A stretch of DNA of 64,000 bases, from positions 15,814 through 79,813 of the IMG/VR virus record IMGVR_UViG_2663763243_000008, one strand, 5' to 3'. This document shows positions 4,372-44,737 of this stretch, in pieces. The position numbers and the translations under genes are program-made. Under the pieces are notes generated by a model, which saw only the letters and a list, made by a program, of their open reading frames with translations, had not been told where the DNA came from and did not search any database. This DNA comes from a virus. Lineage: Duplodnaviria; Caudoviricetes. How positions within the stretch are numbered: the first letter of the stretch is position 1; each line of letters opens with the position of its first letter.

Positions 4372-6135
4372 ATGGAAAGCGTTCTTATCAATGCCGATTT
4401 AGACCCCCGCCGTCAAGCCATGTACCTCTATTGGCAAGGGCTGCGCATCGCCCGAATTGCGGAAATGATCGGTGAGAAAGCGGTCACGGTACACAGTTGG
4501 AAGCGCCGCGACAAGTGGGACGCCTACGGGCCACTGGATCAGATGCAACTGACCACGGCAGCGGAATATTGCCGCCTGATCATGAAACCTGTCAAGGAGG
4601 CCAAAGATTACAAAGAGATTGATCTGCTGGGCCGACAAGCCGAACGCCACGCCCGCATTGGTAAATACAATGATGGCGGCAATGAGGCCGATCTCAATCC
4701 CAATATTGAGAAGCGCAACAGCGGAACGCGCAAGGCTGCGCAGAAAAATGTATTCAGTGAGGCGCAGGTTGCCAAGCTGAAAGATATTTTCAATGAATCC
4801 ATGTTCGACTATCAACGTAACTGGTATGAAGCCGGTTTATCGCCTGATTTCCGTATTCGTAACTTGTTAAAATCTCGTCAGGTTGGCGCAACTTATTTCT
4901 TTTCTTGGGAAGCGCTGCTTGATGCGCTCGACACTGGCCGCAATCAGATGTTTGTGTCTGCCTCAAAAGCACAGGCGCACCAGTTTAAAAACTACATTGT
5001 CGCGGCTGCGCGCCAGGTGGATGTTGATTTGCGCGGTGAGGTAATTATTTTGCCTAATGGCGCGGAAATGCACTTTCTCGGTACCAACGCCAGTACCGCA
5101 CAGGGCCGCCCCGGCAATCTCTATCTGGATGAATATTTCTGGATACCTGGCTTTCAGAAGTTACGCCGCGCCGCATCCGGCATGGCCTCACAAAAAAGAT
5201 ACCGTTCTACCTATTTTTCTACGCCGTCCAGCACCTCGCATGAGGCTTACCCGTTCTGGGCTGGCACGCTGTTTAACAAAGGCAAAGCCAAAGATAAACG
5301 CATTGAAATTGATGTCAGTTATCCACGGCTGGCGGCTGGCCGGTTGTGTGAGGATAAGCAGTACCGCCAGATTGTCACCATTGAGGATGCGCTGAAAGGT
5401 GGCTGCGACCTGTTTGATATTGATGAATTACGCAATGAAAACAGCGAGGAAGATTTCGAAAACCTGTTTATGTGCGGCTTTATTGACGATAACGCCTCCA
5501 CATTCAAATTGGCCGAAATGCAGCGCTGTATGGTCGATAGCTGGGAAAAATGGACAGACGTCAAACTGCTGGCGCTGCGCCCCTTTGGTGATCGTCCAGT
5601 GTGGATTGGCTACGACCCCGCCAGCACCGGCGATAGCGCCGGTTGTGCGGTGATTGCGCCGCCGGTAGTGGCGGGCGGTAAATTCAGGGTATTGGAGCGC
5701 CACCAGTGGAAAGGCATGGATTTTGCCGACCAGGCCAGCAATATCAAAAAAATTACTGAACGCTATAACGTCACTTATATCGGCATTGATGATACCGGTC
5801 TGGGCCGTTCCGTGACGCAATTAGTGCGGCAATTCTTCCCGGCGGTGAACGCCATTCACTACAGCTTAGAGATGAAAGCTGACCTGATTTATAAGGCCAA
5901 AAATATTATTCAGGGCGGCCGTCTGGAGTTTGACGCGGGCTGCATTGATATCGCTACCGCGTTTATGTCGATCCGCAAAACCATGACCGCCACCGGCCGC
6001 AATGCCACTTTTGTCACTGACCGCTCCAAAGACGTCAGTCACGGCGATGTGGCCTGGGCCATTATGCACGCCTTATTCCATGAGCCTCTTGAGGGCATTA
6101 ACAGCAATAACACCAGTGTGATGGAGATATATTAA
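4372..6135 (+). CDS. P: P2 gpP terminase ATPase subunit
   Basis: RNLLKSRQVGAT Walker A-like, LYLDEYFW Walker B, GYDPA nuclease, SHGDVAWA. Confidence 0.95.
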   Translation: MESVLINADLDPRRQAMYLYWQGLRIARIAEMIGEKAVTVHSWKRRDKWDAYGPLDQMQLTTAAEYCRLIMKPVKEAKDYKEIDLLGRQAERHARIGKYNDGGNEADLNPNIEKRNSGTRKAAQKNVFSEAQVAKLKDIFNESMFDYQRNWYEAGLSPDFRIRNLLKSRQVGATYFFSWEALLDALDTGRNQMFVSASKAQAHQFKNYIVAAARQVDVDLRGEVIILPNGAEMHFLGTNASTAQGRPGNLYLDEYFWIPGFQKLRRAASGMASQKRYRSTYFSTPSSTSHEAYPFWAGTLFNKGKAKDKRIEIDVSYPRLAAGRLCEDKQYRQIVTIEDALKGGCDLFDIDELRNENSEEDFENLFMCGFIDDNASTFKLAEMQRCMVDSWEKWTDVKLLALRPFGDRPVWIGYDPASTGDSAGCAVIAPPVVAGGKFRVLERHQWKGMDFADQASNIKKITERYNVTYIGIDDTGLGRSVTQLVRQFFPAVNAIHYSLEMKADLIYKAKNIIQGGRLEFDAGCIDIATAFMSIRKTMTATGRNATFVTDRSKDVSHGDVAWAIMHALFHEPLEGINSNNTSVMEIY

Positions 6136-7931: not shown

Positions 7932-7998
7932 ATCCCACGGATTTTACTTTCTGTGACATGTCACAAGGCTCTTGATTTTGTTTCTGTGCCATGTCACG
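7926..7998. repeat. Three TGTCAC(A/G) sites at 33-bp spacing, including perfect palindrome TGTGACATGTCACA (7952-7965)
   Basis: Half sites end at 7932, 7965 and 7998; 7985-7998 is TGTGCCATGTCACG. Confidence 0.85.
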
Positions 7999-15665: not shown

Positions 15666-16497
15666 GTAATTGCGCCGGAATTGTCGCAATAATTTCTCCG
15701 ATACTTTTTCTGCCATCACTTTTACAACTGATAGAGCGTGGAGCCGTAATAGAGTGGAGGGTGAAACGGCTATAGAGGTCGCGACTGATAGAGGTATTGC
15801 TATTGGAGGCAACAACATGACAGCCATTTTCAGCAGCCCTTGCCAGTAGGCGGGCTAAACGAAATTGCTGATCAGCGCTAAAACCATCGGTGTGATAATG
15901 GGTAAAGTCAGCAGTGCTGGATACCGGGATATAAGGCGGATCGCAATAAATCACATCACCCGCAACAGCCATTTCCAGTGTTTCGGAGAAATCACAACAT
16001 AAGAAAGTCGCTTTCTTGGCTTTTTCAGCAAAGAAACGGATCTCTGCTTCGGGGAAATAAGGTGTTTTGTATTTGCCATAGGGGACGTTAAATCGCCCTT
16101 GTTGGTTATAGCGACAAATACCATTAAAACAATGGCGATTTAGATAAAGGAAGATTGCTGCTCTGGATATATCATCACGGTTTCGTGCATTAAATATTTT
16201 GCGGAAAATATAATATTGTTCGTCGGAATTAGCCGTAAGAAACAGTGAGGAAGCCACATTGATTAAGTCGCTCGTTTCTCTTTTCGCTATCTCATAGAAG
16301 TTAATCAGATCATCATTGATATCTGTTATCAGATATTCATCATAATCCGTATTCAGCATAACAGAACAGGAACCAGCAAACGGTTCTACCAATCGTTTAC
16401 CAGTTGGCAAATGTTGAAGTAAGGTTGGCATAATACGAGCCTTTGAACCGACCCACTTCAGCGGAGAGCGATTTATTGTCATTAGCCGCTTACTCAT
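15658..16497 (-). CDS. dam: Dam-family DNA adenine methyltransferase
   Basis: LKWVGSK, EPFAGS, FNVPYG, YCDPPY. Confidence 0.93.
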   Translation of the reverse strand: MSKRLMTINRSPLKWVGSKARIMPTLLQHLPTGKRLVEPFAGSCSVMLNTDYDEYLITDINDDLINFYEIAKRETSDLINVASSLFLTANSDEQYYIFRKIFNARNRDDISRAAIFLYLNRHCFNGICRYNQQGRFNVPYGKYKTPYFPEAEIRFFAEKAKKATFLCCDFSETLEMAVAGDVIYCDPPYIPVSSTADFTHYHTDGFSADQQFRLARLLARAAENGCHVVASNSNTSISRDLYSRFTLHSITAPRSISCKSDGRKSIGEIIATIPAQLHD

Positions 16498-21365: not shown

Positions 21366-22382
21366 TCACTTTTTCTGACCGCCTACCACTGGCACAATTT
21401 CTGTTTTCCTATCATATCTTGCTGTTTGGGCTGTATTCTTGTGCCCTGAAATGGCTTGCTTCTCTGCGAGGGTTCCCTCTAAGTCTGATATTCCCTTGGC
21501 TTTTAAATCATGAAACGTGAAATCAAAGTCCAATTCGGAAAATGTTTTTGCGGCCAATAATTTTGCGTTGCGCCACCGACTATTGAAACCATCTCTTGTG
21601 TAGCCATGCCCAGACCGCTGATGTAGTACATAAATACTGCTCACACCTGGAGCGATTTCTATTCCATCTGCAATTTTGATGGCCTGCTGTAATCTTTCCG
21701 TCCATGCCTTGATCTGTTTCTTTCCTGTTTTCCCTTGCTGTATAAATACCCCGGCATCTATTAGCTGTGACTTTTTTAAGGCGAGGATGTCTGCTTGCCG
21801 AGCGCAACAAAGATAGGCGAGTTCCATTGCCGCTTTTACAATCGGCGGAGCTACGTTGTAGAGAGCGCTATATTCAGCGTCAGTAATGTATCGTTCCCTG
21901 CTAACCTCTTTAAATTGCTTAACATCCTTGCATGGGTTGCCTTTTACCATTCCCCTCTCATATCCCCAACGATAAACCCGCGATAGGAAAGTTTTCTCAC
22001 GGTTTGCCTGTGTTCTACTGGCAACCCCGCGTCTATCCATATATTTCCTGATATGTTCAGGTTTTATGTTGTCTGGTTCCATTTTCCCGAAAACTGGTAA
22101 TACTCTAAGTGAATATTTGCGGTAGTCTTTCTGCGTCTCAACAGCTAACTCATTAAAATCAACAGAGCGGAAAAACTGTTCAATGAGTTTATTCAAGTTG
22201 GCTTTTTCTAATGGCTCAGTATTTATTTTTTCGTAGCATGACCATACTTGAGAAATAGGTGCATCCAATGGGCATAGCGATATTGAGCCACCGCGGGCGG
22301 GGTGGAATTCATATTTCGATTTTCCACGATACACCCGAGGTGGTAATGCCGTGTCTGCGGCGTTCTTGCGTTTACCGGCCAC
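21366..22382 (-). CDS. int: Tyrosine integrase (lambdoid)
   Basis: CARQADIL, FHDLKAKG, SGHK, TARYDR. Confidence 0.93.
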   Translation of the reverse strand: MAGKRKNAADTALPPRVYRGKSKYEFHPARGGSISLCPLDAPISQVWSCYEKINTEPLEKANLNKLIEQFFRSVDFNELAVETQKDYRKYSLRVLPVFGKMEPDNIKPEHIRKYMDRRGVASRTQANREKTFLSRVYRWGYERGMVKGNPCKDVKQFKEVSRERYITDAEYSALYNVAPPIVKAAMELAYLCCARQADILALKKSQLIDAGVFIQQGKTGKKQIKAWTERLQQAIKIADGIEIAPGVSSIYVLHQRSGHGYTRDGFNSRWRNAKLLAAKTFSELDFDFTFHDLKAKGISDLEGTLAEKQAISGHKNTAQTARYDRKTEIVPVVGGQKK

Positions 22383-22608
22383 TGTTCATGGCCTCGAAAT
22401 TGGGTTCTTCTTTTTCTGGCTCTAGCGGCTTACCGCGTAAACTGATTGGATTCAAAAAATGGCCCCAAGTGGTTTTCGGGTGTCCGTCTGGGCGTCGGAT
22501 AAAAAAGATCCCCGAGCGGCGTAAAGAGTCACATTGTTTGGTTTTGTAGTGATGACCGGTCAACTCAATCATCTCCTCTTTGGTGATTATGTCGTGGTCG
22601 TTTTTCAT
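22372..22608 (-). CDS. Excisionase (DUF4224-like)
   Basis: ELTG...KQCDSLRRSGIFF...DGHP...EPNFEAM, directly upstream of int. Confidence 0.8.
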   Translation of the reverse strand: MKNDHDIITKEEMIELTGHHYKTKQCDSLRRSGIFFIRRPDGHPKTTWGHFLNPISLRGKPLEPEKEEPNFEAMNSGR

Positions 22609-22771
22609 GGTCTTGCCCCTGTATCATTTGGGTTATTGCTCTGTCGGTCGCAGAACAGGCCCGCTGTATATCGTGGTCGGTGAGTTGTTGTTTCCGTACA
22701 CTGGCTGATAATTTGCCGATCTTAATATCTAAGTCGGTTAATAGGCGTTTGCCCGGTTGCCATGGCTGCAT
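22565..22771 (-). CDS. Hypothetical protein
   Basis: ORF with RBS in the pL operon. Confidence 0.6.
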   Translation of the reverse strand: MQPWQPGKRLLTDLDIKIGKLSASVRKQQLTDHDIQRACSATDRAITQMIQGQDHEKRPRHNHQRGDD

Positions 22772-22820
22772 GGTGGTTTCCCTGGTGTTGGATTTCCACC
22801 ATGCTAGCGGGGCAGGTTGA

Positions 22821-23003
22821 TTATTTCTGATTATGCAAAATCAATTTTTCGGGTGCTTTCTGCGGTGGGGTGCTGCTAATTCGAACATCTACCGGAAAAT
22901 CGTAGTGAACATCACAACGGCGATCAGTGTGGATGGTGCCTGTTCGTCCATCGGGGAGTGTGATATAGGACTTTTCACCGCGTTTGTGAGTACGCTTTAG
23001 CAT
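22821..23003 (-). CDS. Small protein with CsrA-like pattern
   Basis: MLKRTHKRGEKSYITLPDG...VHYDFPVDVRI resembles the CsrA MLILTRKVGE...APKDVSV layout. Confidence 0.5.
   Translation of the reverse strand: MLKRTHKRGEKSYITLPDGRTGTIHTDRRCDVHYDFPVDVRISSTPPQKAPEKLILHNQK
22827..22844. promoter_or_regulatory. YdaT/CII-type inverted repeat (CTGATT-N6-AATCAA), pI-like promoter
   Basis: Same repeat as 27799-27816; leftward -10 TAGCAT at 22801-22806. Confidence 0.65.
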
Positions 23004-23048
23004 GGGTGTTGCCTCAGTAATGCCCCGTTGGTTTGGGGCGGGATGAAA

Positions 23049-23549
23049 TTAGCGAACCTGCAGGCTACGGCTACCGATCTCGATATGCGCACCTTTAACA
23101 TCAACACCATTCTCTATGGCTTCCTTAATGGCTTTTTTATCGGGCGCTACGGTGGTTTGCACTGTCACCAATTCACTGGACAATAAGTCTTCATTGTCGA
23201 TCACCACACTGGCCACACCTTTGCGTGCGGTGAATGTGTTATACGGCGTTTTAAGTGTGTTCATATCTGCGGCCAATAAGCAGTTAAGGACGTACTGTTT
23301 GATCGATTTGGCCCGATTCTCGAATGACCTTTTCCGCTCAGCCAGACGTTTAGCTTCCTCATCACAGGTCTTTGCTTGCCCCTCAAGATTGCGAACAAAG
23401 ACGTAGGTTGCATCCAGCTTATCCCCCAGGGCACCCTCTAACCCCTCAAGCGTATCGGCGATCATTTCTGGCGTGAGTTCCTCTGAGGACTCAACCAACT
23501 GTTGCAGTTTGAAAAGGTCTGCGGCTAATGCGATTGCTGTATTGCTCAT
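23049..23549 (-). CDS. Siphovirus Gp157 family protein
   Basis: IADTLEGLEG...PDKKAIKEAIENGVDVKGAHIE...SLQVR. Confidence 0.85.
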   Translation of the reverse strand: MSNTAIALAADLFKLQQLVESSEELTPEMIADTLEGLEGALGDKLDATYVFVRNLEGQAKTCDEEAKRLAERKRSFENRAKSIKQYVLNCLLAADMNTLKTPYNTFTARKGVASVVIDNEDLLSSELVTVQTTVAPDKKAIKEAIENGVDVKGAHIEIGSRSLQVR

Positions 23550-25741
23550 AATGTCGGCTCCTGTGCGGTAAGTTCAGCAACCCGTTTTTCAGTTAAGCGG
23601 TGTAACGCCAGCAGGCGGGTTTTGAGGTAATTGGCGTGTTCGTGATCGGCTTTGGCTTCTGCATCTTTGCGGTGTACATCAACTTCACGCGCAATGGTGC
23701 TGTAAACCTTGTTCACTTCGTTGGTGGTGACGGCGCTCGTAATGGTATTGCCTACTTTGGTTAACTTCTCATCCAGCTCTTTGCGCAGACGAACTGAGTC
23801 ACCGGCTTTCTCACTTGCGTTCTTGATAGCAAACTCAGCGGCGTTATCAGTGCGGTATCCGAGATCATCAAAAAGACCGAGGAATACATCAGCAGAGAAA
23901 CCAAGTTGTGACAGTGCCTTTTTAGTCGCATCCGTTAGTGATTTTTTGGTGACTTCACTATCACAGGTGAGACCGTTTTTGGTGTTGTAGATATATGGGG
24001 TGCAACCATATGCAGGGATTTCGCCACGCTCACCACGCAGGGTGTAGATTAAGCGTATTTTAATGACATGATTGATCTCAGTTAGATAGCCGCCAGATCC
24101 GTTGGGTATGACTTCTTTTATATAATTTCCATCAGCACCTTTGACTGACCGCATGATCGGTGCACCGTTATCAAAGCGTTCTTCTAAAATCTCCACCCGC
24201 CAGTTGATACCTTGTGGCCCAAGCAATTTTGTTGCTTGCATAACCATATAGGTGCCGTTAATCGACGTGCCACCACCGTTATTTGAGAATGCTTTAGTAA
24301 AGCGTTCATCGGTTCTTTGCACCGAGCGCCACAGATTCATGTTGTCCTGCACATCTTGTGGCTGTGAAGATATATCCTCTTCAATGATGACGGCTCGCTG
24401 CTGAAATTCATCAGCAGTAACATCTACAGTAGGAATAGCGCTTTGCTGCGCCTCTTCAATAACCTCTGTCGGCTTCTCCTCAACTGAGGCATAAACGCTG
24501 TAACCCAACTGATCCAACGTCTCTTTAGCCTGTTGAGCTGCGTTATCAGTGATAGGTTCCAGTTCAGGGTTTTCCTGTTCTGTTTCAACAATTGGCGGTT
24601 TTGTTTCAGTTTCTGGCTCAGAATTGGCAACCAGCGCCAGTTTTGTTTCATTGTTTGCCGCTGGTTGCGGTTCACCACCGGCTAGACCATCAATAGAGAA
24701 CTTGCCATCACCCAGATTGGTTACTGCGGGTTGTGGGTTTTTAACGGCTAAACACTGAGTGATAAATTCCTTTCGTGCTGAGGCATCGGTCAGGAAGATA
24801 GGTTGCTTTTTACCCGCGCGGATCACTTCAAAGATGCTTTCACGTGGAATAGATAACACATTGTTGCGAACGCGAAAATCGGTTGACCATTTACGCCAGG
24901 CATCATCATTGTTATCCATCAGCTCTTTTGCTTGCTTCATCTCTGCCGACATGACATCCCAGCAGTTAAAATCAGCAGGCAATAAGGCGAGAGCGACTTC
25001 GAGATCGAGCGTTTTATATGTGTGCTCAAAGCTGCGTTTGATTGGCGCATCAGGAGCCGGCGTGTCAATACGGGCAACTTTTTTAGTACCGGTTAACTCG
25101 TCACGATTGCTGGGTTCATTAACCCATTTTTCAGCAAAGCTACGTACTTCCCTGAATCCAGGTATTTTGGGGAATTTCTTATTTATCGCATCAATAAGAT
25201 TTTTAATTGACTGCGGATACATCGCGCCAATTGCAGGAATACATGTGAGCGCCATGTATATCGAACTTATTTCCGGCTCAGCGTCGTCATCATTAATTAA
25301 GTCATACACAAGTGATAGCTCATGTGAATCAATGTCACGCGCACCGTACAACATTACGCTACCAACTTTAGCTCCAATACCCAGTTTGTTGAAATCAACC
25401 GGAGTAGTAGTAATGTCCTCACTTACCTCGCCGTTGTCTTCATTACCATCCTCAGGCAACGGTACAGCATTAGGCGTCCATACTTTGCCATCAAAGGTAT
25501 TATCCTGTGCGAACTGCTCATCGAACTCACCAACAACCGGGCGCGGTTGCCCGACAGTATCCTCACAGATTTTCGGATCAGCAAAGTTATCACCGGCAGC
25601 GGGGTAGGCTTCCCATAATTTCCCGATGGCCAGTGCGGATGCCATTTTCTTATTTATGGCTTCCAGAGCTATAACAAGCGGTATAGCCCCATTTTTGAGA
25701 GCCGCTTTTTTCGGCTCGAATAAACAAATAAATACAGTCAT
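23546..25741 (-). CDS. RecE-N-terminal-like region fused to Rad52/Sak-like annealing domain
   Basis: N-terminal FEPKKAALKNGA / HTYKTLDLEVALALLP; C-terminal TSINGTY...GPQGINW...KKSLTDATKKALSQLGFSADVFLG. Confidence 0.7.
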   Translation of the reverse strand: MTVFICLFEPKKAALKNGAIPLVIALEAINKKMASALAIGKLWEAYPAAGDNFADPKICEDTVGQPRPVVGEFDEQFAQDNTFDGKVWTPNAVPLPEDGNEDNGEVSEDITTTPVDFNKLGIGAKVGSVMLYGARDIDSHELSLVYDLINDDDAEPEISSIYMALTCIPAIGAMYPQSIKNLIDAINKKFPKIPGFREVRSFAEKWVNEPSNRDELTGTKKVARIDTPAPDAPIKRSFEHTYKTLDLEVALALLPADFNCWDVMSAEMKQAKELMDNNDDAWRKWSTDFRVRNNVLSIPRESIFEVIRAGKKQPIFLTDASARKEFITQCLAVKNPQPAVTNLGDGKFSIDGLAGGEPQPAANNETKLALVANSEPETETKPPIVETEQENPELEPITDNAAQQAKETLDQLGYSVYASVEEKPTEVIEEAQQSAIPTVDVTADEFQQRAVIIEEDISSQPQDVQDNMNLWRSVQRTDERFTKAFSNNGGGTSINGTYMVMQATKLLGPQGINWRVEILEERFDNGAPIMRSVKGADGNYIKEVIPNGSGGYLTEINHVIKIRLIYTLRGERGEIPAYGCTPYIYNTKNGLTCDSEVTKKSLTDATKKALSQLGFSADVFLGLFDDLGYRTDNAAEFAIKNASEKAGDSVRLRKELDEKLTKVGNTITSAVTTNEVNKVYSTIAREVDVHRKDAEAKADHEHANYLKTRLLALHRLTEKRVAELTAQEPTL

Positions 25742-25796
25742 GTTGGTCTTGCCTCTTTGGTTTTTAAACGGATCTTGGTCTTTGATGTATGACTAA

Positions 25797-26132
25797 TTAA
25801 AAAGGAATTTCGGTATCATCAGATACGTTCGATGGAGTGCTGTGCTCGATGCATAGCAACGCCTGAATCTGATCATCAATTAGTGACTGCTTACGATATG
25901 ACTCAGCCGCAATCTGTTCCTTTTTGCTATGGAGTGAATCGACATGCTTGCTGATGATTTCAAAAGGGTCGGGTTCGTCAAAAGGAATCGTAATTTCTCG
26001 GGTTTCGAGTAAAACATGCGCTGGCTCAACCTGTGACATGTCACAGGTGTACACGGTAAAGCGATCATCTTTTGATGTTGAATATGGATTGGTATGGATG
26101 TAGAGCTTGGTGGTTATCTGTAGTGCTGTCAT
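25797..26132 (-). CDS. Hypothetical phage protein
   Basis: Start MTALQ with AGGAG RBS; C-terminal QIQALLCIEH. Confidence 0.7.
   Translation of the reverse strand: MTALQITTKLYIHTNPYSTSKDDRFTVYTCDMSQVEPAHVLLETREITIPFDEPDPFEIISKHVDSLHSKKEQIAAESYRKQSLIDDQIQALLCIEHSTPSNVSDDTEIPF
26029..26048. repeat. 20-bp perfect palindrome containing TGTGACATGTCACA, intragenic
   Basis: ACCTGTGACATGTCACAGGT. Confidence 0.9.
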
Positions 26133-26141
26133 AGCAACTCC

Positions 26142-26150
26142 TGATATACT
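26142..26150 (+). promoter_or_regulatory. Extended -10 promoter (TGaTATACT) for the antisense sRNA
   Basis: Matches TGnTATAAT with one mismatch. Confidence 0.65.
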
Positions 26151-26156
26151 TATTTT

Positions 26157-26274
26157 AAGATTGATGGCGTAAGCCGTTGGTCTTGCCTCTGTTAACGGGT
26201 TGGTCCCCGTTAGCTTCCCGGTTAACTTTGGTCGGTGACCCGGGGTAAAGAAGCCCACTTCGGTGGGTTTTTTT
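26157..26274 (+). ncRNA. Putative ~118-nt multi-hairpin antisense sRNA with UUGGUC loops
   Basis: Promoter, GUAA hairpin, anti-RBS segment, two UUGGUC-loop hairpins, cUUCGg terminator; G-U pairs favour the + strand. Confidence 0.75.
26251..26274 (+). terminator. Rho-independent terminator of the sRNA
   Basis: AAGCCCAC-TTCG-GTGGGTTT then T-run. Confidence 0.85.
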
Positions 26275-26442
26275 ACGTCTGTAATTTGGTGCCCATTACG
26301 CCGGGCCAGCGGGTCAGATCTTCGGTCTTGCCTCACCACACTTTCCCGTCGTGGCTACGTTATTGGTTTGGGCTGCTGCACTGTGGTAATCATGCCGAGC
26401 CTTGGCGCGGGGTTCTCCTCCAATGCAACAACCCAAATTCTG

Positions 26443-26598
26443 TTATTGCCGTACTTTGACTACTTGATAATCACGGCCAGTATTACGTGCGTAATCATCA
26501 GCTTCTTTGCGAGTTGGGTAAGTATTTCCGTTAGCCCACATTCCACAGTAGCGATATTGGATCTGGAATTTACTCGCTTGCTTTTTAGTTGCTTTCAT
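26443..26598 (-). CDS. Small first gene of the pL operon (51 aa)
   Basis: MKATKKQASK... with GAGGG RBS. Confidence 0.6.
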   Translation of the reverse strand: MKATKKQASKFQIQYRYCGMWANGNTYPTRKEADDYARNTGRDYQVVKVRQ

Positions 26599-26746
26599 AA
26601 CTTCCCTCTTTTGCCGTCTTCCCGGCTGCCAGAACGTACTAAACCTAAACTTGCGAATCATCCGGTGTTTCGTATGCCACCGGCAGCTACTTCGTGGGCG
26701 TCCTGCCTGTTCGCATCGGCTACTGTGCCGTGTTGATGAGAGAAAT

Positions 26747-26795
26747 GTACCTATAGTTACCTTTCGTGTCAATAAGGGGGTGTTCCAATAGTTAC
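26747..26795. promoter_or_regulatory. OL operators / pL
   Basis: GTACC-TATA-GTTAC (26747) and GTTCC-AATA-GTTAC (26782); TTGACA on the minus strand between them. Confidence 0.7.
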
Positions 26796-26838
26796 ATTTA
26801 GGGGCATAAAAAAGCCCATCAGGGGGATGGGCTATTGA

Positions 26839-27501
26839 TTACAGGTCTTGGGTAACCTGAACAACGCGACCGAGAATACGGCAATTGCCGTTTATTTCGA
26901 TGGGTTTGAAATTGGGATTTAAAGGCATTAGGTATTTATTGGGGCCATCAACAACTAACTTTTTAATGGTGGCCTCGGAGCTGCCATCAATGATGGCGAC
27001 CACTATTTTACCGTACAAATCATCAATAGAACCATAATTAGGTTCTACGATAACGGTAGACCCCTCGGGGATAGAAGGGGAACCATTGGGGTTGGTCATT
27101 GACTCACCCCGAACATCCAAACCAAATGCGTTTTCAGAAACCTTCACTGTGGTGTTGCACCATCTAAGAACATCAGAGATACGGGCGGCGGAGTAGGTTT
27201 CTGTCCAGGCACCGGCTTGAACGGATGAGATGACAGGTATGGCATTAGGCACAGCGACGAGGGGCTTAATCTTCGTATCGTCAACCTGACGTAAATCTCC
27301 GGTACCATAGAGTAACCACTCTGGCGTGCATGAAAGTATTTGCGCCAGCCGGTGAAGATTTTCCCCATCTGGTTTAGTGATTCCTGACTCCCATTTTGTC
27401 ACTGATACACGGCTCACCCCAATAGCTTTGGCTAATTGGACTTGCGTGAGATCTAGCTGCAGTCTGCGAAGACGGATGCGGTCATTCATTTCATTTTTCA
27501 T
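26839..27501 (-). CDS. cI: CI repressor (HTH + S24 peptidase)
   Basis: LTQVQLAKAIGVSRVSVTKWESG; VRGESM and ATIKKL. Confidence 0.93.
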   Translation of the reverse strand: MKNEMNDRIRLRRLQLDLTQVQLAKAIGVSRVSVTKWESGITKPDGENLHRLAQILSCTPEWLLYGTGDLRQVDDTKIKPLVAVPNAIPVISSVQAGAWTETYSAARISDVLRWCNTTVKVSENAFGLDVRGESMTNPNGSPSIPEGSTVIVEPNYGSIDDLYGKIVVAIIDGSSEATIKKLVVDGPNKYLMPLNPNFKPIEINGNCRILGRVVQVTQDL

Positions 27502-27563
27502 GTAACCAATGTTACGCCATAGCGATGTGAAAAGTGTTTGCATTGTTATGTACCTTTTGTTAC
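27502..27563. promoter_or_regulatory. OR operators / pR
   Basis: GTAAC-CAAT-GTTAC (27502) and GTACC-TTTT-GTTAC (27550), same consensus as OL. Confidence 0.7.
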
Positions 27564-27593
27564 CTTTCATCCTGAGTTAAACAAGGAGTTCCT

Positions 27594-27779
27594 ATGAACA
27601 AGAAAGATGTCGTCAAGTTTTTTGGTGGGGTAGTGAATACCGCCACGGCCTTAGGCATAAAGCACCCAGCAGTTTGCCGTTGGGGGGCAATTATCCCTGA
27701 GAAACAGGCAATGAAGATTGAACGCATGACTCATGGCGAACTGAAATATGACCCCGCTATGTATCGAAGTGCAGCCTAA
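27594..27779 (+). CDS. cro: Cro-like repressor
   Basis: KDVVKFFGG...ALGIKHPAVCRWG..IPEKQA...GELKYD. Confidence 0.88.
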   Translation: MNKKDVVKFFGGVVNTATALGIKHPAVCRWGAIIPEKQAMKIERMTHGELKYDPAMYRSAA

Positions 27780-27798
27780 CCCAATCCCACTCACAAAT

Positions 27799-27816
27799 CT
27801 GATTATCAATAATCAA
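27799..27816. promoter_or_regulatory. YdaT/CII-type inverted repeat (pRE-like)
   Basis: CTGATT-ATCAAT-AATCAA between cro and CII. Confidence 0.7.
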
Positions 27817-27839
27817 TTTCCTGCGACAGGAGACGCAAC

Positions 27840-28304
27840 GTGGAACAAGAAATTAAAGCCCTTAAAGCCGAAGTTCAGGCGTGGGCGGCAGAGCGGGGGC
27901 AGGAGCATGTAGCTATCGAGATCAGCAGAATGTTTTTCTTGCTCAATATCAACACCGGTTCAGTTCGTCTCACTCCCATTGAAAACGGGCAGGGCGGCGC
28001 TGATTGGAAGTCTATTAACAACAACCGGCAGCAGTTATTTCGCTGGCTGCGCGGGGATTCAAAAGCATCAATGCGCAAGGTCTTGGAATTATCACCGGTA
28101 CTTAAAGCGGCACTCCCGGCAGAACGGCGGGCCAGGGTGAATGGCGAGACCGTGAATTATTTGGTTTCGATTGCCAGTCGAGAGTTTGCCGCAGCAATTA
28201 GCGCGGTTCTATTAGATGGCTGTGACATGTCACAAAGGATATCGGGCGCTGTTGCGGCACTTCACGCAATCAGACCACAACACCACCGGCTGACCACCGT
28301 ATAA
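27840..28304 (+). CDS. CII-equivalent regulator, YdaT-like
   Basis: VQAWAAERGQEHVAIEI...NNRQQLFRWL; CII position. Confidence 0.75.
   Translation: MEQEIKALKAEVQAWAAERGQEHVAIEISRMFFLLNINTGSVRLTPIENGQGGADWKSINNNRQQLFRWLRGDSKASMRKVLELSPVLKAALPAERRARVNGETVNYLVSIASREFAAAISAVLLDGCDMSQRISGAVAALHAIRPQHHRLTTV
28221..28234. repeat. Palindrome TGTGACATGTCACA, intragenic
   Basis: Perfect copy, read as CDMSQ in the CII frame. Confidence 0.9.
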
Positions 28305-28320
28305 AACAGAGGCAAGACCA

Positions 28321-28545
28321 ATGCTTACATCTATCGACAAAATCACCTGGCGCAACGGATTCCGGCTTAACGGCCAACCGGCAAGCATGGTTGACATCGC
28401 CCCTATTTTTGCCGGGCGTCAGGTAGCCGCCTATAGCGTGTGGGAGCAGTATGAACAAAAGAAAGCCGACCTGCGCGGGATGAACCTATCGCCTGACGAT
28501 TATCAGTCTGCCTGTCGGCAAATAGCCGAAGCGCTAGGGATCTGA
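28321..28545 (+). CDS. Hypothetical protein
   Basis: ORF preceded by the AGAGGCAAGACCA RBS motif. Confidence 0.7.
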   Translation: MLTSIDKITWRNGFRLNGQPASMVDIAPIFAGRQVAAYSVWEQYEQKKADLRGMNLSPDDYQSACRQIAEALGI

Positions 28546-28547
28546 CT

Positions 28548-29522
28548 ATGAGCATGAATCTAATGGCTCGGGCCATGAATATCAAAGTCGGCAACCCGTT
28601 ACGAAAGTTAGTGCTGATAAAATTAGCTGATAATGCGAACGATCAGGGCGAGTGCTGGCCATCGGTTCCCTACATTGCCGATCAGTGTGAAATATCCGAA
28701 CGCTCGGTACAGAATCATATTCAAGAACTGGTCAAAAGTGGGCTGGTTAGGATTGAAGAACGTAAATCTGATAATGGCCTGAATCGTTCAAATGTTTATC
28801 ACCTGCGCTTAAATTCCGCTGGTGCAAATGCTGCACCCTATGGTGAATCTCCTGCACCCTCTGGTGTAAATGGTGCACCGGTTAGTGGTGCAAATGCTGC
28901 ACCCAGAACCAGTCACTCTTTTGAACCAGTCATAGATCCAAATACACCCCTTACCCCTCAAGGGGAAACCGAAAATATTCTCGCTGACGCTGAAAAGGCT
29001 TTGGCGTATTACAACGAACTCACTCACACTCGGTGTGAAGATTCTAGCCCATTCGAAACCTTGCTGACGGCAACGAAATCACGCAAAGCCTACGCGCTGG
29101 CTGATTTGCAACTGGTGGCCCTATGGGTAGTCAGCACATGGAAACCCCGCAACGGCAAGTATGCCAAACCTGCGAATATCTGCCGTGTAAACCGGTTCGA
29201 TGGTTATCTGGCTGATGCCCGCGCATGGTCTGAGTCTGCCGGGCGGATTGATTGCGATGAGGTCATTGCTGCGTATAACCGTGTATTCAGCGATGTTTTG
29301 CCACCGGCTGAAATCGATCAGGACCGTAAACACGCCATCCGCGAATTACTCCAATACCTCAAAACCAAAGACCTTGAAGCGTTCCAGAGCTACTTCGAAG
29401 CCTTTCGCGGACAGGCAACCGTGTTTTATTTCGGTGGTGATGATGGGGCAGGCTGGCGGGCAAACTTTGATTATCTGATGAAACCGGAAGTTTTAAGAAA
29501 AACCCGTGATGGTGCGCTATGA
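28548..29522 (+). CDS. Replication initiator (O-like, HTH)
   Basis: KLVLIKLADNANDQGECWPS; internal iterons; WRANFDYL. Confidence 0.9.
   Translation: MSMNLMARAMNIKVGNPLRKLVLIKLADNANDQGECWPSVPYIADQCEISERSVQNHIQELVKSGLVRIEERKSDNGLNRSNVYHLRLNSAGANAAPYGESPAPSGVNGAPVSGANAAPRTSHSFEPVIDPNTPLTPQGETENILADAEKALAYYNELTHTRCEDSSPFETLLTATKSRKAYALADLQLVALWVVSTWKPRNGKYAKPANICRVNRFDGYLADARAWSESAGRIDCDEVIAAYNRVFSDVLPPAEIDQDRKHAIRELLQYLKTKDLEAFQSYFEAFRGQATVFYFGGDDGAGWRANFDYLMKPEVLRKTRDGAL
28821..28903. repeat. Replication origin iterons (4 x GGTG-N7-TGCACC)
   Basis: Copies at 28821, 28842, 28863 and 28887. Confidence 0.8.
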
Positions 29523-30880
29523 ATGCATACGATTTAGAGTCAGCGGTAGTGGGTGGCCTGCTGCTCGGTGGCGCTACACCAGATGCCTATGACGTTATTG
29601 CCACTTTGCCTGAGGACGCCTTTAATACGGCATTCTTCCGCCGCGTGTATATCGAGATTAAGCGTCAGGCGCTGGGGACGTCAGTCATTGATCCGATCTT
29701 AGTCGGCGAGTCGATGGGGGGTGATGATTTTGCCAACGTCTTAAGCACAGCAAAAAGCTGTTGGAGCGCTGCAAATCTCAAGGGCTATGCAGACCTGGTT
29801 CGCGAATATTGGCATGTACGTGCGTTGACGGCAGCAATCCAAAAAGGGCAGCAGCAATTGGCCGCCTCTCACAGTCATGAACAGGCCAAGTTTGCTGTAG
29901 CTGAATTCATGGTCACCATGACCGAATTAACAAGCGAAAGTGGCGGCTTAATGCCGGTACACATCAAGGAATTGATGGATACCTATGTCGACACGCTGGA
30001 AAAACGGAACTTAGGCGCAGAAGAAACCCGCATGATCATGACCGGCATTGAACCGCTGGATCAGTTGACCGGAGGCTTTAACCCCACCGATTTAATTATA
30101 CTGGCCGGACGCCCCGGCATGGGTAAAACAGAGTTGGCGTTAAGCATGATTAACGGCATGACCCGTAATGGTGGTGGCGCTTTGTTGTTCTCTATGGAGA
30201 TGGCAGCACAGCAGATTACCGAACGTACCATTGCCGGATCTGCCCAACTACCCGTATCCAAATTGCGTTCTGGCGTACTTTATGAGGAGGATTGGGCGCG
30301 CATATCTAACAGCCTTGGCGAGTTGGTTAATCAGGATATTTGGATTGTTGATGCCAGCGAACTCACCATTGATCAGATACGCGCCATTTCTGAAACGCAT
30401 AAACGCCGTTACCCGCACTTGAGTGGCGTATTTGTTGATTACATGGGGCTAATTACCACACCAAAAGCTGAGCGGCATGATCTGGCCGTTGGCAAAATAT
30501 CCGGTGGCCTCAAAGCCCTTGCAAAACGCATCCATACGCCTGTTATCGCCTTAAGCCAACTATCTAGAAAGGTGGACGAAAGGCCCGCGGGTATGCGTCG
30601 TCCCGTTCCCGCCGATCTGCGTGACTCTGGTTCTGTTGAACAAGACGCTGACCGAATAATTTTCACCTACCGCGATGTTATTTATAACCCACTCAGTCCA
30701 GCCAAGGACTACGCCGAATTGATTTTAGCTAAAGATAGATTTGGCATTCCGGGTGTCGTGTACCAGCAATTTAAAAATGGGCATTACATGCCAACTAACC
30801 AAACTAGTGCAGAGCAAGTATGCCGTATGCAGCAGGAAGCAAAATCAAACAATAGAAGTTACTCAACAAAAAAATTTTAA
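29519..30880 (+). CDS. dnaB: DnaB-like replicative helicase
   Basis: AGRPGMGKT, FSMEM, VDYMGL, LSQLSR, DLRDSGSVEQDAD. Confidence 0.95.
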   Translation: MNAYDLESAVVGGLLLGGATPDAYDVIATLPEDAFNTAFFRRVYIEIKRQALGTSVIDPILVGESMGGDDFANVLSTAKSCWSAANLKGYADLVREYWHVRALTAAIQKGQQQLAASHSHEQAKFAVAEFMVTMTELTSESGGLMPVHIKELMDTYVDTLEKRNLGAEETRMIMTGIEPLDQLTGGFNPTDLIILAGRPGMGKTELALSMINGMTRNGGGALLFSMEMAAQQITERTIAGSAQLPVSKLRSGVLYEEDWARISNSLGELVNQDIWIVDASELTIDQIRAISETHKRRYPHLSGVFVDYMGLITTPKAERHDLAVGKISGGLKALAKRIHTPVIALSQLSRKVDERPAGMRRPVPADLRDSGSVEQDADRIIFTYRDVIYNPLSPAKDYAELILAKDRFGIPGVVYQQFKNGHYMPTNQTSAEQVCRMQQEAKSNNRSYSTKKF

Positions 30881-30924
30881 CCGCGCCTGACCAGCGTTTA
30901 AGTAACCCCAAAAGAGGCAAGACC

Positions 30925-31305
30925 ATGAAAAAACGTGAACTAACTACCCGTGAATTGGCTGAGGTTATGCTGGGCCAAAGCATGAGCTACAGCCAGATTA
31001 TCGAGGCTATAGCTTTAAAATTCCCTAATGCTGAAATGCCTATTAACGTACTGCGTATCCGTGTGAGAAGCATGGTGCTCTCACCTCATGCAGACATTAC
31101 CCGCCGCAATGGTCGAAAGACTCAATACACCCTCAACAGTATCTCAGAGGATTTTTTCCGATTCTCTGACACACAAGTCAAACGCAATAAAAGCGAACCC
31201 CGAACTAAACCCGCCAGAATGCCATTTGATGATAAGGAGTTGGCGTACTGCTTGCGAGCATCCCGAATAAATCAACTGATGAGCACTGTAGGCATGGGGA
31301 GTTAA
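30925..31305 (+). CDS. Hypothetical (winged-helix-like) protein
   Basis: ORF preceded by the AGAGGCAAGACC RBS motif. Confidence 0.65.
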   Translation: MKKRELTTRELAEVMLGQSMSYSQIIEAIALKFPNAEMPINVLRIRVRSMVLSPHADITRRNGRKTQYTLNSISEDFFRFSDTQVKRNKSEPRTKPARMPFDDKELAYCLRASRINQLMSTVGMGS

Positions 31306-31309
31306 TACC

Positions 31310-31561
31310 ATGTCCGGGCAATCTGATTATCTCCCGCCCGGACTCCCGTACAACATTTGCCTCTGGCCTCAGGAATACCAAGAAAAGCTAAATCTTGATT
31401 TGAGAGCCAGCGGCTTAATCAAAAACCTGTACGAGCGCAGGACCAACCGCGCTCATGTACTTGAAGCGATTGAACGGGTACCGGTGCATTACCGAGAGTT
31501 TTTTAAAGAGCGCTTAAATTACTGGCGTGACCGTAGAGACCACAGAGGCGAGACCAAATGA
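31310..31561 (+). CDS. Hypothetical phage protein
   Basis: MSGQSDYLPPGLP start; coupled. Confidence 0.65.
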   Translation: MSGQSDYLPPGLPYNICLWPQEYQEKLNLDLRASGLIKNLYERRTNRAHVLEAIERVPVHYREFFKERLNYWRDRRDHRGETK

Positions 31562-32064
31562 ATATTTCAACCGATGGCATGATTGCTGCAATTCGTTCAG
31601 CAGCGGAAAGAGTGGAACCACGTGAAAGTGAGGTGCTAAACGGCATCGCTGATCGCATAGCGGAGCTGGTGACCTCAGCTAATAAGAACCGGCGCACAGC
31701 GAAGCATTATGAGCGGGAGTGTTTGGAGTGGCAGGGGAAATATAATGTGATTGTTGCCGAGAACGCAGCACTTCAACAATCCTGCGTCCATGTATATAAC
31801 GCTGGTTACAACAGGGGGCATCTGAATACGGTAGATGGCATCTCTTCATGTGGCGACTATGAAGAAGATGCATTTGAGGCGCTATACGAAGTAATTAGTG
31901 TCCCTGCAACCATTCTGGCTCTTAATGATGTAGAGGCGAGTGGTGTTGAAAAATTTGCGCAGCACCGTCACGTACAAGCCTTTGACGTTGGTGTAATGGC
32001 AGATACAGGCGAGATTTCCAATATTCTTGATTTCGCAGCAAGACTACGTGAGGGGGCGCAATGA
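31558..32064 (+). CDS. Ead/Ea22-like protein
   Basis: AENAAL...ASGVEKFA...FAARLREG motifs. Confidence 0.65.
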   Translation: MNISTDGMIAAIRSAAERVEPRESEVLNGIADRIAELVTSANKNRRTAKHYERECLEWQGKYNVIVAENAALQQSCVHVYNAGYNRGHLNTVDGISSCGDYEEDAFEALYEVISVPATILALNDVEASGVEKFAQHRHVQAFDVGVMADTGEISNILDFAARLREGAQ

Positions 32065-34576: not shown

Positions 34577-34601
34577 TGATGCGACATGTCACATAACTAT
34601 A
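34572..34601. repeat. 30-bp imperfect palindrome centred on TGCGACATGTCACA
   Basis: TATAGTGATGCGACA|TGTCACATAACTATA, overlapping the stop codon of the RHH/Cys4 gene. Confidence 0.85.
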
Positions 34602-43339: not shown

Positions 43340-44737
43340 ATGTCACGCATCTGCGTAAACGTGCTGTCGGTCATCAACTCCGCTTCAAACATCACTTCTG
43401 AAACCATTGATGGCGTTGAGCACATCGTTGTGAAGGACGTCTGTCCTGTCATCGACGATATCGTGCTCAATGGCGGACTGTACCCGGCAGACGAGATTTC
43501 CAAAGGCTTCAAAAGCCTTGAAGGTAAGCCCATGCCGTATGGGCATCCGAAGATTGAAGGCCAGTACGTCAGCGCAAGTAATGTGCGGGCCGTGAACGAA
43601 TATCACATTGGGGCATTCGCCCGTAACGTTCGTAAAGACGGCGATCGTGTACTGATGGATATGTGTGTTAACCGCCGTTATGCCGAAGCGACGGATAAGG
43701 GCAAAGAGGTCGTTAATAGACTGGATGATATGAAGGGGGGGAAAGAGGTTGAGCCGATCGGCGTTTCAACTGGCCTCGGGCTAAATCGAGCGGAAGGGAA
43801 AGGAGTTTCCAAGGGTAAAAAATATAACTGGGTTGCCCGCAACCAAGATTACGACCACTGCGCCATCCTGTTGCACGAGACGCCAGCCGGAACGACGCAA
43901 GAAGGTGTAGGGATCTTTGTTAATGCCCAGGGTGACCAGCTTCAAATAGAAACCGTGAACCTCGCAGATGCGTCCAATTGCACAGAAGAGGGGTTGCTGA
44001 ATAAAGCCAAGTTCTTCTTCACTAATGCTTCTAATTACTCCTTTGATGACATCCAGCGAGCACTCAGCCAAAAGCTGCGTGAGGGTAAGTCTGATGACTT
44101 TTACTCATGGCCTGATTCCGTATGGCCGGACAAGTTCATCTACAACGATAAAGGCAAAACATATCAACAGAAGTACCTCATCGACGATGACGGCACAGCT
44201 GAATTCGTCGGCGAACCTGTAGAAGTCGTGCGCAAACCCACTGAGTACGAAATTAAAACCAACGGAGCTGAAAACCCGATGAAAGACATGATTGTTAACG
44301 CACTGAAAGCAAAAGGTAAGCCGACCGAAGGCAAGACCGAAGCTGAATTGCTTGATGCATACAACCAAATGAATGCAGAAGAAGCAAAGATCAAAACTGA
44401 AACGCCGGAAGAGAAGGCTGTTCGCGAAAAGAAAGAGGCTGATGATAAGACCACCAAAGATAAAGCCACCAACAGTGAAGAGATACCGTTATGGGCTAAA
44501 GCACTCGCCGATCGTGTTGATTCAGTGGTGAATAGCTTGAGCGTTAACTCCGACAAGGAGAAGACTGAAAAGCGATCAGCAGTTAAAGCTAAGTTTGGCC
44601 TTGAAGATATCGCAGTAAACGCTTTAGACGGCGCTGCTCTCGATGGGCTATTCGCCCAATGCGCAACCTCAACCGGTCTGAATGGCTCTTTCCGCCAGGC
44701 CAATTCCTCTCAATCAGTTAGCGAAATGCCGGAGTAA
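43340..44737 (+). CDS. Prohead protease/scaffold (DUF2213-like)
   Basis: MPYGHP, VSTGL, DHCAILLHETPAG; start MSRIC. Confidence 0.8.
   Translation: MSRICVNVLSVINSASNITSETIDGVEHIVVKDVCPVIDDIVLNGGLYPADEISKGFKSLEGKPMPYGHPKIEGQYVSASNVRAVNEYHIGAFARNVRKDGDRVLMDMCVNRRYAEATDKGKEVVNRLDDMKGGKEVEPIGVSTGLGLNRAEGKGVSKGKKYNWVARNQDYDHCAILLHETPAGTTQEGVGIFVNAQGDQLQIETVNLADASNCTEEGLLNKAKFFFTNASNYSFDDIQRALSQKLREGKSDDFYSWPDSVWPDKFIYNDKGKTYQQKYLIDDDGTAEFVGEPVEVVRKPTEYEIKTNGAENPMKDMIVNALKAKGKPTEGKTEAELLDAYNQMNAEEAKIKTETPEEKAVREKKEADDKTTKDKATNSEEIPLWAKALADRVDSVVNSLSVNSDKEKTEKRSAVKAKFGLEDIAVNALDGAALDGLFAQCATSTGLNGSFRQANSSQSVSEMPE

Follow-up and report, generated by a model that had tools for sequence, protein, structure and literature searches.

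The 64-kb window analysed here (64,000 nt, positions 15,814 to 79,813 of the Caudoviricetes record IMGVR_UViG_2663763243_000008 in IMG/VR; all window coordinates count from its first base) contains two divergent early operons, read on the - strand to the left of cI-like and cro-like genes and on the + strand to their right. We describe a short sequence tag at the ribosome-binding sites (RBSs) of early genes in both operons, and a predicted antisense small RNA (sRNA), apparently related to Salmonella IsrB, whose gene lies within the leader of the leftward early (pL) operon and carries the complement of the tag. Pfam and PHROGs matches place the early genes in the excisionase, Gp157, exonuclease, S24/HTH repressor, P22-Cro, YdaT, HTH_36/DnaD-like and DnaB families.

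We scanned the window for GAGGCAAGACC with up to one mismatch and found nine matches, against 0.65 expected from 100 dinucleotide-preserving shuffles (mean 0.65, maximum 3, with none of the 100 reaching nine). Eight of the nine lie between 22609 and 31555, each on the sense strand of its own operon: six stand 0-3 bases before an ATG, and two are in the pL leader, where no start codon follows. The ninth (AAGGCAAGACC, 44328-44338) is internal to a 499-aa open reading frame (ORF), away from any start. Among 94 ORFs from a crude greedy gene call, six have the tag within 25 nt upstream of the start, all within 22372-32064, and none of the late-gene or P2-like-region starts in that call carries it. 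The tag holds GAGG at Shine-Dalgarno (SD) distance, 7-10 nt before the ATG, and its conservation spans the SD-to-AUG spacer, a stretch that normally varies. We conclude that the tag is non-random, sense-oriented and, among start codons, found at those of early genes only. This bears out the first-pass annotation of the window, which had reported the motif at early-gene RBSs in both operons, with coordinates right to within a few bases, and its absence from late-gene and P2 RBSs.

On the - strand, GGGGCAAGACC (22609-22619) directly precedes the ATG of xis (22372-22608), a PHROG excisionase, and the variant GAGGCAACACC (23005-23015), followed by one base, precedes the ATG (23003) of a 60-aa ORF (22821-23003) that has a perfect tag in many relatives. 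The next copy (25745-25755) is followed by AAC and the ATG (25741) of a gene for a 731-aa exonuclease (23546-25741), after which comes a Gp157-family gene that overlaps its end. An extra GACCAA lies 25 nt upstream of the exonuclease tag (25775-25780, - strand), where the first-pass annotation had placed it, and is kept as AAGACCAAG in Yersinia-type relatives. The two leader copies, also on the - strand, are copy 4 (26179-26189), which lies inside the sRNA gene of the opposite strand, and a copy at 26324-26334, which is absent together with a 51-aa ORF module in several relatives and may be a decoy for the sRNA or a relic RBS. On the + strand, the copy at 28309-28319 is followed by A and the ATG of a 74-aa ORF (28321-28545), which heads the replication block with O-like and DnaB-like genes close behind; that at 30914-30924 directly precedes the ATG of a 126-aa ORF (30925-31305), at whose position relatives carry another gene behind the same tag; and GAGGCGAGACC (31545-31555) is followed by AA and the ATG of a 168-aa ORF (31558-32064). 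Judged from ORF coordinates, each closely packed early block appears to begin with a tagged gene. The positions of the motif copies in the first-pass annotation were borne out, including that at 26324-26334; the list had missed the copy at 26179-26190, which is the seed of the sRNA itself. Several of its gene labels were not confirmed. The 60-aa ORF had been called CsrA-like, but it gave no Pfam match (E up to 0.01) and its PHROG, 2482, is of unknown function; the 168-aa protein, called ead-like, belongs to a PHROG family of unknown function; and the 731-aa protein, described as a recE/sak fusion, matches PHROG exonuclease families and could not be confirmed as such a fusion.

A predicted IsrB-like small RNA gene in the pL leader

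The pL-like promoter (26744-26772, - strand; TTGACA, 17 nt, TACATT) drives a transcript that runs antisense through the sRNA gene. The predicted sRNA is about 121 nt long (~26157-26277, + strand) and antisense to the operon; its 5′ end is taken from a -10 box and its 3′ end is the U-run of a terminator. The promoter is of the extended -10 type (TGaTATACT, 26142-26150, with TATACT at 26145-26150), and transcription is predicted to start 7 nt after it, at ~26157. A 5′ hairpin, H1 (26157-26184), is followed by H2 (26191-26214), whose invariant loop UUGGUC (26200-26205) has an unpaired probability of ~1, by H3 (26217-26244), the part shared with Salmonella IsrB, whose invariant loop is CUUUGGUCGG (26226-26235), and by an intrinsic terminator (26245-26277) with a GC stem, a UUCG loop and U7. 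The terminator stem shows a compensatory change, CCCAC/GUGGG against CCCGC/GCGGG. The 3′ end of H1 and the bases from there to H2 form the anti-motif GGUCUUGCCUCU (26179-26190), which is tag copy 4 read on the opposite strand and the exact complement of the tag AGAGGCAAGACC; its GGUCUU is predicted to pair within H1 and its GCCUCU (26185-26190) to be unpaired. The sRNA thus holds the full complement of the tag plus UUGGUC in two invariant loops, matching the invariant GACCAA of the tag. The fold z-score was -6.05 for the + strand (26150-26285), compared with -1.76 for the - strand (26120-26345), and with sensitive filters the Rfam isrB model (RF01386) matched 26187-26273 (+) along its whole length (1-87 of 87; 35.0 bits, E 1.8e-4; gathering score 35).

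To compare this gene across phages we gathered 61 loci by an exonuclease-protein search. Among Yersinia-type loci, a block of ~150 nt around 26179-26190 is nearly invariant, far above the flanking genes; since this block holds a 2-nt indel, it is non-protein-coding. A 180-aa ORF at 25797..26339 was rejected upstream of the ATG at 26132, where the 2-nt indel among relatives breaks its frame. In every lineage the sRNA strand carries a -10 box, a lineage-specific 5′ hairpin, the complement of that lineage's own tag, one or two hairpins with the loop (U)UUGGUC, and a terminator, and usually also a hairpin with the loop CUUUGGUCGG. Read by eye, a -10-like hexamer (TATAAT, TATACT, TAAAAT or TATATT) occurs at the equivalent place in all 20 diverse representatives, in the forms TGATATACT, TGATATAAT, TCGTATAAT, TGTTATACT, TAAAAT or TATATT; in the Mixta type the hexamer does not overlap an SD. 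In the four relatives printed (L037, L038, L053 and L009), the T-run is on the sRNA strand only.

We tested the structure comparatively in an alignment of 16 diverse sRNAs, reading the structure from single folds. Paired cells made up 90.3% of the total, compared with 79.0% in shuffles, and 12 of the 19 pairs, including all seven of H2, showed compensatory changes on both sides, across lineages. The covariation score was 0.436, compared with 0.228 in shuffles (none of 500 reached the observed value) and at most 0.175 in slid controls. Three hairpins of the sRNA gene have support from covariation. G-U cells outnumbered A-C cells by 33 to 6, and the structure therefore belongs to the + strand. 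Columns UUGGUCUU.CCU and the loops UUGGUC and CUUUGGUCGG were invariant across all 16 sequences. An alternative structure, in which RNAalifold on a MAFFT alignment paired the anti-motif with GGGGUA, was rejected because hairpin H3 was misaligned. Over the interval 25950-26450, no reads came from three raw RNA runs labelled with the same species, and one contig run, only guessed to be RNA, gave even coverage; this is uninformative either way.

The sRNA element and the tag occur together. Using nhmmer we detected the element in 56 of the 61 exonuclease-related loci, and also in Pectobacterium phage ZF40; of the five loci without it, two are contigs of 951 bases and in the other three the exonuclease gene is cut. 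When viral contigs were scanned for an exact 15-mer, at least 119 loci were returned and, among the matches listed, every viral locus with five or more tags contains the element. Where a multi-tag record lacked it in the first locus, it was present elsewhere in the record (5 of 5, E ≤4e-22; four of the records ≥99% complete). The first-pass annotation had reasoned that an association with the sRNA would fail if the motif were equally common in phages lacking it; among the records sampled, complete phages without the sRNA did not contain the motif. Sampling 151 genomes of the order gave matches in only two, too few to add lineages.

Tag dialects match the small RNA of the same locus

The tag differs between lineages at two positions, which are almost always alike at all sites of a locus; the part GAGG...GACC(AA) is invariant in all lineages. 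GAGGCAAGACC is found at 5-8 sites in loci of the Yersinia and Pectobacterium types; in Serratia-type loci, whose exonuclease identity is ~45%, all sites have GAGGAAAGACC, leader copies included, and Mixta/Izhakiella-type loci carry GAGGTATGACC, with GAGGAATGACC at some starts. In ZF40, which has the same gene order as the window, CGAGGCAAGACC precedes gp03, gp05, gp13, gp16 and gp18, a one-base variant (GAGGCAAGATC) precedes the exonuclease gene gp07, and two leader copies have no start codon.

To determine whether the dialect of the tags follows the sRNA, we scanned 62 loci, classed each by the anti-motif of its own sRNA, and counted exact 11-mers elsewhere in the locus. Nine loci could not be classed by exact 11-mer, their sRNA copy beginning AAGG or TAGG. 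In all 53 classifiable loci, every exact copy elsewhere was the tag of the locus's own sRNA or, in the TT class, a one-base variant of it: the CA class (28 loci) had 110 CA copies and no AA or TT, the AA class (19 loci) had 93 AA copies and no others, and the TT class (six loci) had 23 TT and eight AT copies and no CA or AA. A natural control is provided by one Yersinia frederiksenii genome with two prophages, one of CA type (L002) and one of TT type (L200). In L200, GAGGTATGACC precedes four other starts and GAGGAATGACC a fifth, on both strands. Pairing of the tag with 16S rRNA beyond the SD had also been considered, and was dropped because two dialects coexist in this one host genome.

We then examined pairing between the sRNA and the start regions of the window. 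Duplex prediction with the full-length sRNA was uninformative and an 18-nt seed was used instead. The five best duplexes among the 94 ORF starts were those of five tagged genes, with energies from -25.2 to -32.5 kcal/mol (median of all starts, -9.2): the 74-aa ORF (-32.5, with 17 contiguous bases complementary to the sRNA), the exonuclease gene (-29.5), the 168-aa ORF (-29.3), xis (-27.7) and the 126-aa ORF (-25.2). Counted by eye, complementarity at the five start regions extends over 12-17 contiguous bases. In the tags of xis and the 168-aa ORF, an A-to-G change retains the pair as G-U; in that of the 60-aa ORF, a G-to-C change breaks a pair, and the duplex (-17.2) ranks ninth of 94. Five of the seven distinct internal one-base RBS variants are A-to-G or C-to-T, keeping a G-U pair. 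This is only suggestive of variants that respect pairing, given that the SD would suffer from G-to-A changes too. In orthologs of the 74-aa gene, the RBS and the sRNA copy have a further 4-9 bases in common upstream of the core GG (counting GA or TA before GG), and the shared flank differs by lineage: AACAGAGG in Yersinia, CTGTATCGAGG in Serratia and (T)TCTAGG in the L053/L061 type. A requirement for an SD cannot explain this lineage-specific upstream flank.

Some further relatives extend the picture. An AT-rich phage lineage (viral loci L065, L071, L086, L138, L147, L155 and others) has exactly GAGGCAAGACCAATG at many starts, together with an sRNA with a TAAAAT -10 box; the tag has therefore been kept across a large shift in base composition. 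Behind copy 4, AT-rich relatives have short, unconserved mini-ORFs, as read from their sequences. In L015 and L033, an ATG behind copy 4 is in frame with a 111-aa ORF; the window has ACG at this place, and its ORF starts at 26132 with its own CAGGAG (- strand). A second element in a Pectobacterium polonicum genome (L202; 9922-10002 and 14066-16400) holds a divergent member of the sRNA family (33 bits). Its 5′ region is complementary, but for one base, to CGAGTTTTGACCAATGA, which is present three times downstream on the + strand and, in so far as this locus was partly examined, is a possible fourth dialect.

Relation to known systems, candidate mechanism and alternatives

Northern blots and primer extension revealed IsrB-1 (88 nt) and IsrB-2 (94 nt), both induced by starvation (PMC2330248), and IsrB is reported as expressed in a lysogen strain (PMC7067206). 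The literature passages searched give no target or function for IsrB, and a search limited in journal coverage returned no paper on the tag or on a target of Salmonella IsrB. The window sRNA appears to be a 5′-extended relative of IsrB from the Salmonella Gifsy prophages, with its expression and 5′ end predicted. Like the IsrB RNAs of Gifsy-1 and Gifsy-2 (RF01386), which are antisense to the leftward early operon and just upstream of a recE/sbcA-type exonuclease gene, it lies among - strand genes but on the + strand, one ORF upstream of the exonuclease gene. Gifsy-2 IsrB itself scores 99.3 bits against the isrB model, at 5993-6080 (+), where it is flanked by two - strand genes, exonuclease VIII and STM1010. 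In Gifsy IsrB, a hairpin whose loop is GCUUUGGUCGGU is accompanied by a Rho-independent terminator; a comparable pair, with loop CUUUGGUCGG, is present in the window sRNA. Unlike IsrB, the window RNA has a ~30-nt 5′ extension comprising H1 and the anti-motif, and its H2 loop is UUGGUC rather than the UAUA type of the isrB consensus. Gifsy-2, whose IsrB is without the anti-motif extension, also differs from the window phage in having no shared RBS tag: we found no common RBS motif at its 24 annotated starts. The sRNA family is already known, whereas the limited literature searched reports no shared RBS tag that co-varies with such an RNA and is read by it in both early operons.

Functional parallels are the c4 antisense RNA of phages P1 and P7 and the CI RNA of P4, which are complementary to a short repeat in early transcripts that includes the RBS, and hold lytic functions off in the lysogen. 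We compared features rather than sequences here, and the window sRNA is likewise complementary to a repeated early-mRNA sequence that includes the RBS. The c4 and CI RNAs are processed from the same transcript as their targets and act on one operon. In contrast, the window RNA has its own predicted promoter and terminator, opposite to pL, and the tag stands at five or six separate starts, in both of the divergent early operons. Two other short antisense RNAs of the immunity or early region, lambda OOP and P22 sar, act in cis on one overlapping gene; neither is known to have a repeated trans target tag.

We propose that the IsrB-like antisense sRNA probably represses translation of the tagged early genes in trans. 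The tag would then be a shared target site, or 'address tag', for this phage-encoded RNA: the anti-motif GGUCUUGCCUCU would pair with the tag, the loops UUGGUC and CUUUGGUCGG being complementary to the GACCAA next to the start codon, and pairing over the SD and the spacer up to the AUG would block ribosome entry at the head of each early block. The targets would be xis; the 60-aa ORF; the exonuclease and Gp157-family genes; the 74-aa ORF with the O-like and DnaB-like genes; the 126-aa ORF; and the 168-aa ORF with genes downstream, such that excision, recombination and replication functions would be silenced together. A post-transcriptional regulon of just these functions, linked to an sRNA, had been suggested by the first-pass annotation, and it is the best-supported reading after testing, through the conserved antisense sRNA with its exact complement and the matching dialects; the regulation itself, including repression as its direction, is what we infer from them. 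The likely role would be a second, RNA-based layer of lysogeny maintenance or immunity, given that lysogens express IsrB from their prophages. Being fully complementary to the sRNA and read against its promoter, the pL transcripts would titrate the sRNA and shut it off after induction. Decisions of temperate phages are usually ascribed to repressor proteins; here one small RNA could shut the early genes of both operons. If true, this would provide a function for the IsrB family, known since 2008, would explain why unrelated early genes have identical SD-to-AUG spacers, and predicts dialect-specific cross-immunity between prophages. More tentatively, and with rather more doubt than belief, we raise the possibility that sRNA-tag pairs form an RNA-level immunity code, in which each lineage has a dialect that no RNA but its own IsrB-like one reads. 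Phages that share the cell or superinfect it would then be silenced or spared depending on their dialect, as with repressor-operator immunity groups, and a change of dialect would be an escape route; this would be the first function for the IsrB family.

Several observations weigh against repression in trans. The isrB match is exactly at threshold and was unlisted when the whole window was scanned in gathering mode. The 5′ end is a prediction from the -10 box only, and a start like that of Gifsy IsrB would omit most of the anti-motif. In the lineage of the window, GGUCUU is predicted to be locked in H1 (-14.7 kcal/mol), leaving GCCUCU and the loops free. With two of the RBS variants a pair is lost: GAGGCAACACC, before the 60-aa ORF, and GAGGAATGACC, before the exonuclease gene of the Mixta type. 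There are three clear dialects and a partly examined fourth, in related loci, so that independent changes are few and the large counts are non-independent. Lastly, five further records with two or three tags in the locus (fragments 13-54% complete) gave one strong match to the element, one weak match (26 bits) and three with none.

Two other observations on this side also speak for a different account, which we regard as unlikely: that the tag is a 'house' RBS of the lineage that doubles as a junction for module exchange, its copies kept alike by recombination or gene conversion. The sRNA would then act in cis alone, on the pL leader and the genes that immediately follow, and its remaining complementarity would be a by-product of overlapping one tagged site. 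At one and the same map position, an identical tag is indeed followed by different genes in relatives, as with ...GACCatgaaaaaacg and ...GACCatgcatacaatc after the DnaB-like gene, and the 51-aa ORF module (26443-26598, with the tag copy at 26324-26334) is absent in L012, L019-L022, L031 and L032, with junctions at tag-like, AAGAC-containing GGGAAGAC or GGAAAGAC. Recombination at the tag could therefore also keep the copies alike. Moreover, copy 4 is followed by an ATG in some lineages (L015, L033, L053 and the Mixta type), and Gifsy IsrB exists without any tag system. However, an exchange junction leaves unexplained why the tag persists at copy 4 in lineages that have neither a start codon nor a conserved ORF behind it, why the loops UUGGUC and CUUUGGUCGG are invariant while the stems vary, why one-base tag variants are mostly G-U-compatible, and why the flank upstream of the SD of the 74-aa gene follows the lineage-specific sRNA. 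Exchange at the tag and repression by the sRNA are compatible with each other.

Could the tag instead be read by a protein? T4 RegA, a translational repressor, and RegB, an endoribonuclease, show that one factor can act on the initiation regions of many early mRNAs. A phage RNA-binding protein or nuclease of this kind, or like CsrA, might recognise GAGGnAnGACC(AA) on early mRNAs, with the leader copies and GACCAA hairpins as extra sites or a sponge; the sense-strand pL leader does have GACCAA in hairpin loops and two tag copies without a start codon, and a weak rsmX-like covariance-model match (23.6 bits, threshold 56) fits the same idea. We give this idea little credence. The excess of G-U over A-C cells assigns the hairpins to the antisense RNA rather than the sense leader, and the promoter and T-run are on the antisense strand. 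Whereas RegA and RegB are proteins, the matching factor in the window is an RNA: of the early ORFs scanned (20 against Pfam, 9 against PHROGs, several small ones without known function) none matched an RNA-binding or RNase family, and the 60-aa ORF is not CsrA, which, with the rsmX score below threshold, speaks against a CsrA/Rsm system. Least probable of all, and in our view very improbable, is that the tag serves just as a strong initiation signal for translation, adapted to the host ribosome, with no specific regulator. GAGG at SD distance is what such a signal would contain, but two prophages of one host genome have different tags, late and P2-region genes of the same record have none, and conservation includes the normally variable spacer.

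Other features near the locus

Just downstream of the pL-like promoter, at 26653-26714 (-), lies a stretch of ~62 nt that recurs, with 83-95% identity and in the same map position, in unannotated DNA of many temperate phages that are otherwise unrelated, among them ST64B, SfII, SfV, mEp460, YeP1-3, Pantoea AH07 and SPN3UB; ZF40 also aligns. Its fold is not distinctive (z -0.65) and it has no Rfam match above noise. It may be a nut-like or put-like antitermination RNA.

The window also contains five copies (up to one mismatch) of a 12-bp palindrome, GTGACATGTCAC, against 0.06 expected, at 7953-7964, 7986-7997, 26033-26044, 28222-28233 and 34581-34592. One copy is inside the 111-aa ORF and is conserved in relatives, and one is near the end of the YdaT-family gene. 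The palindrome is possibly a protein-binding or modification site.

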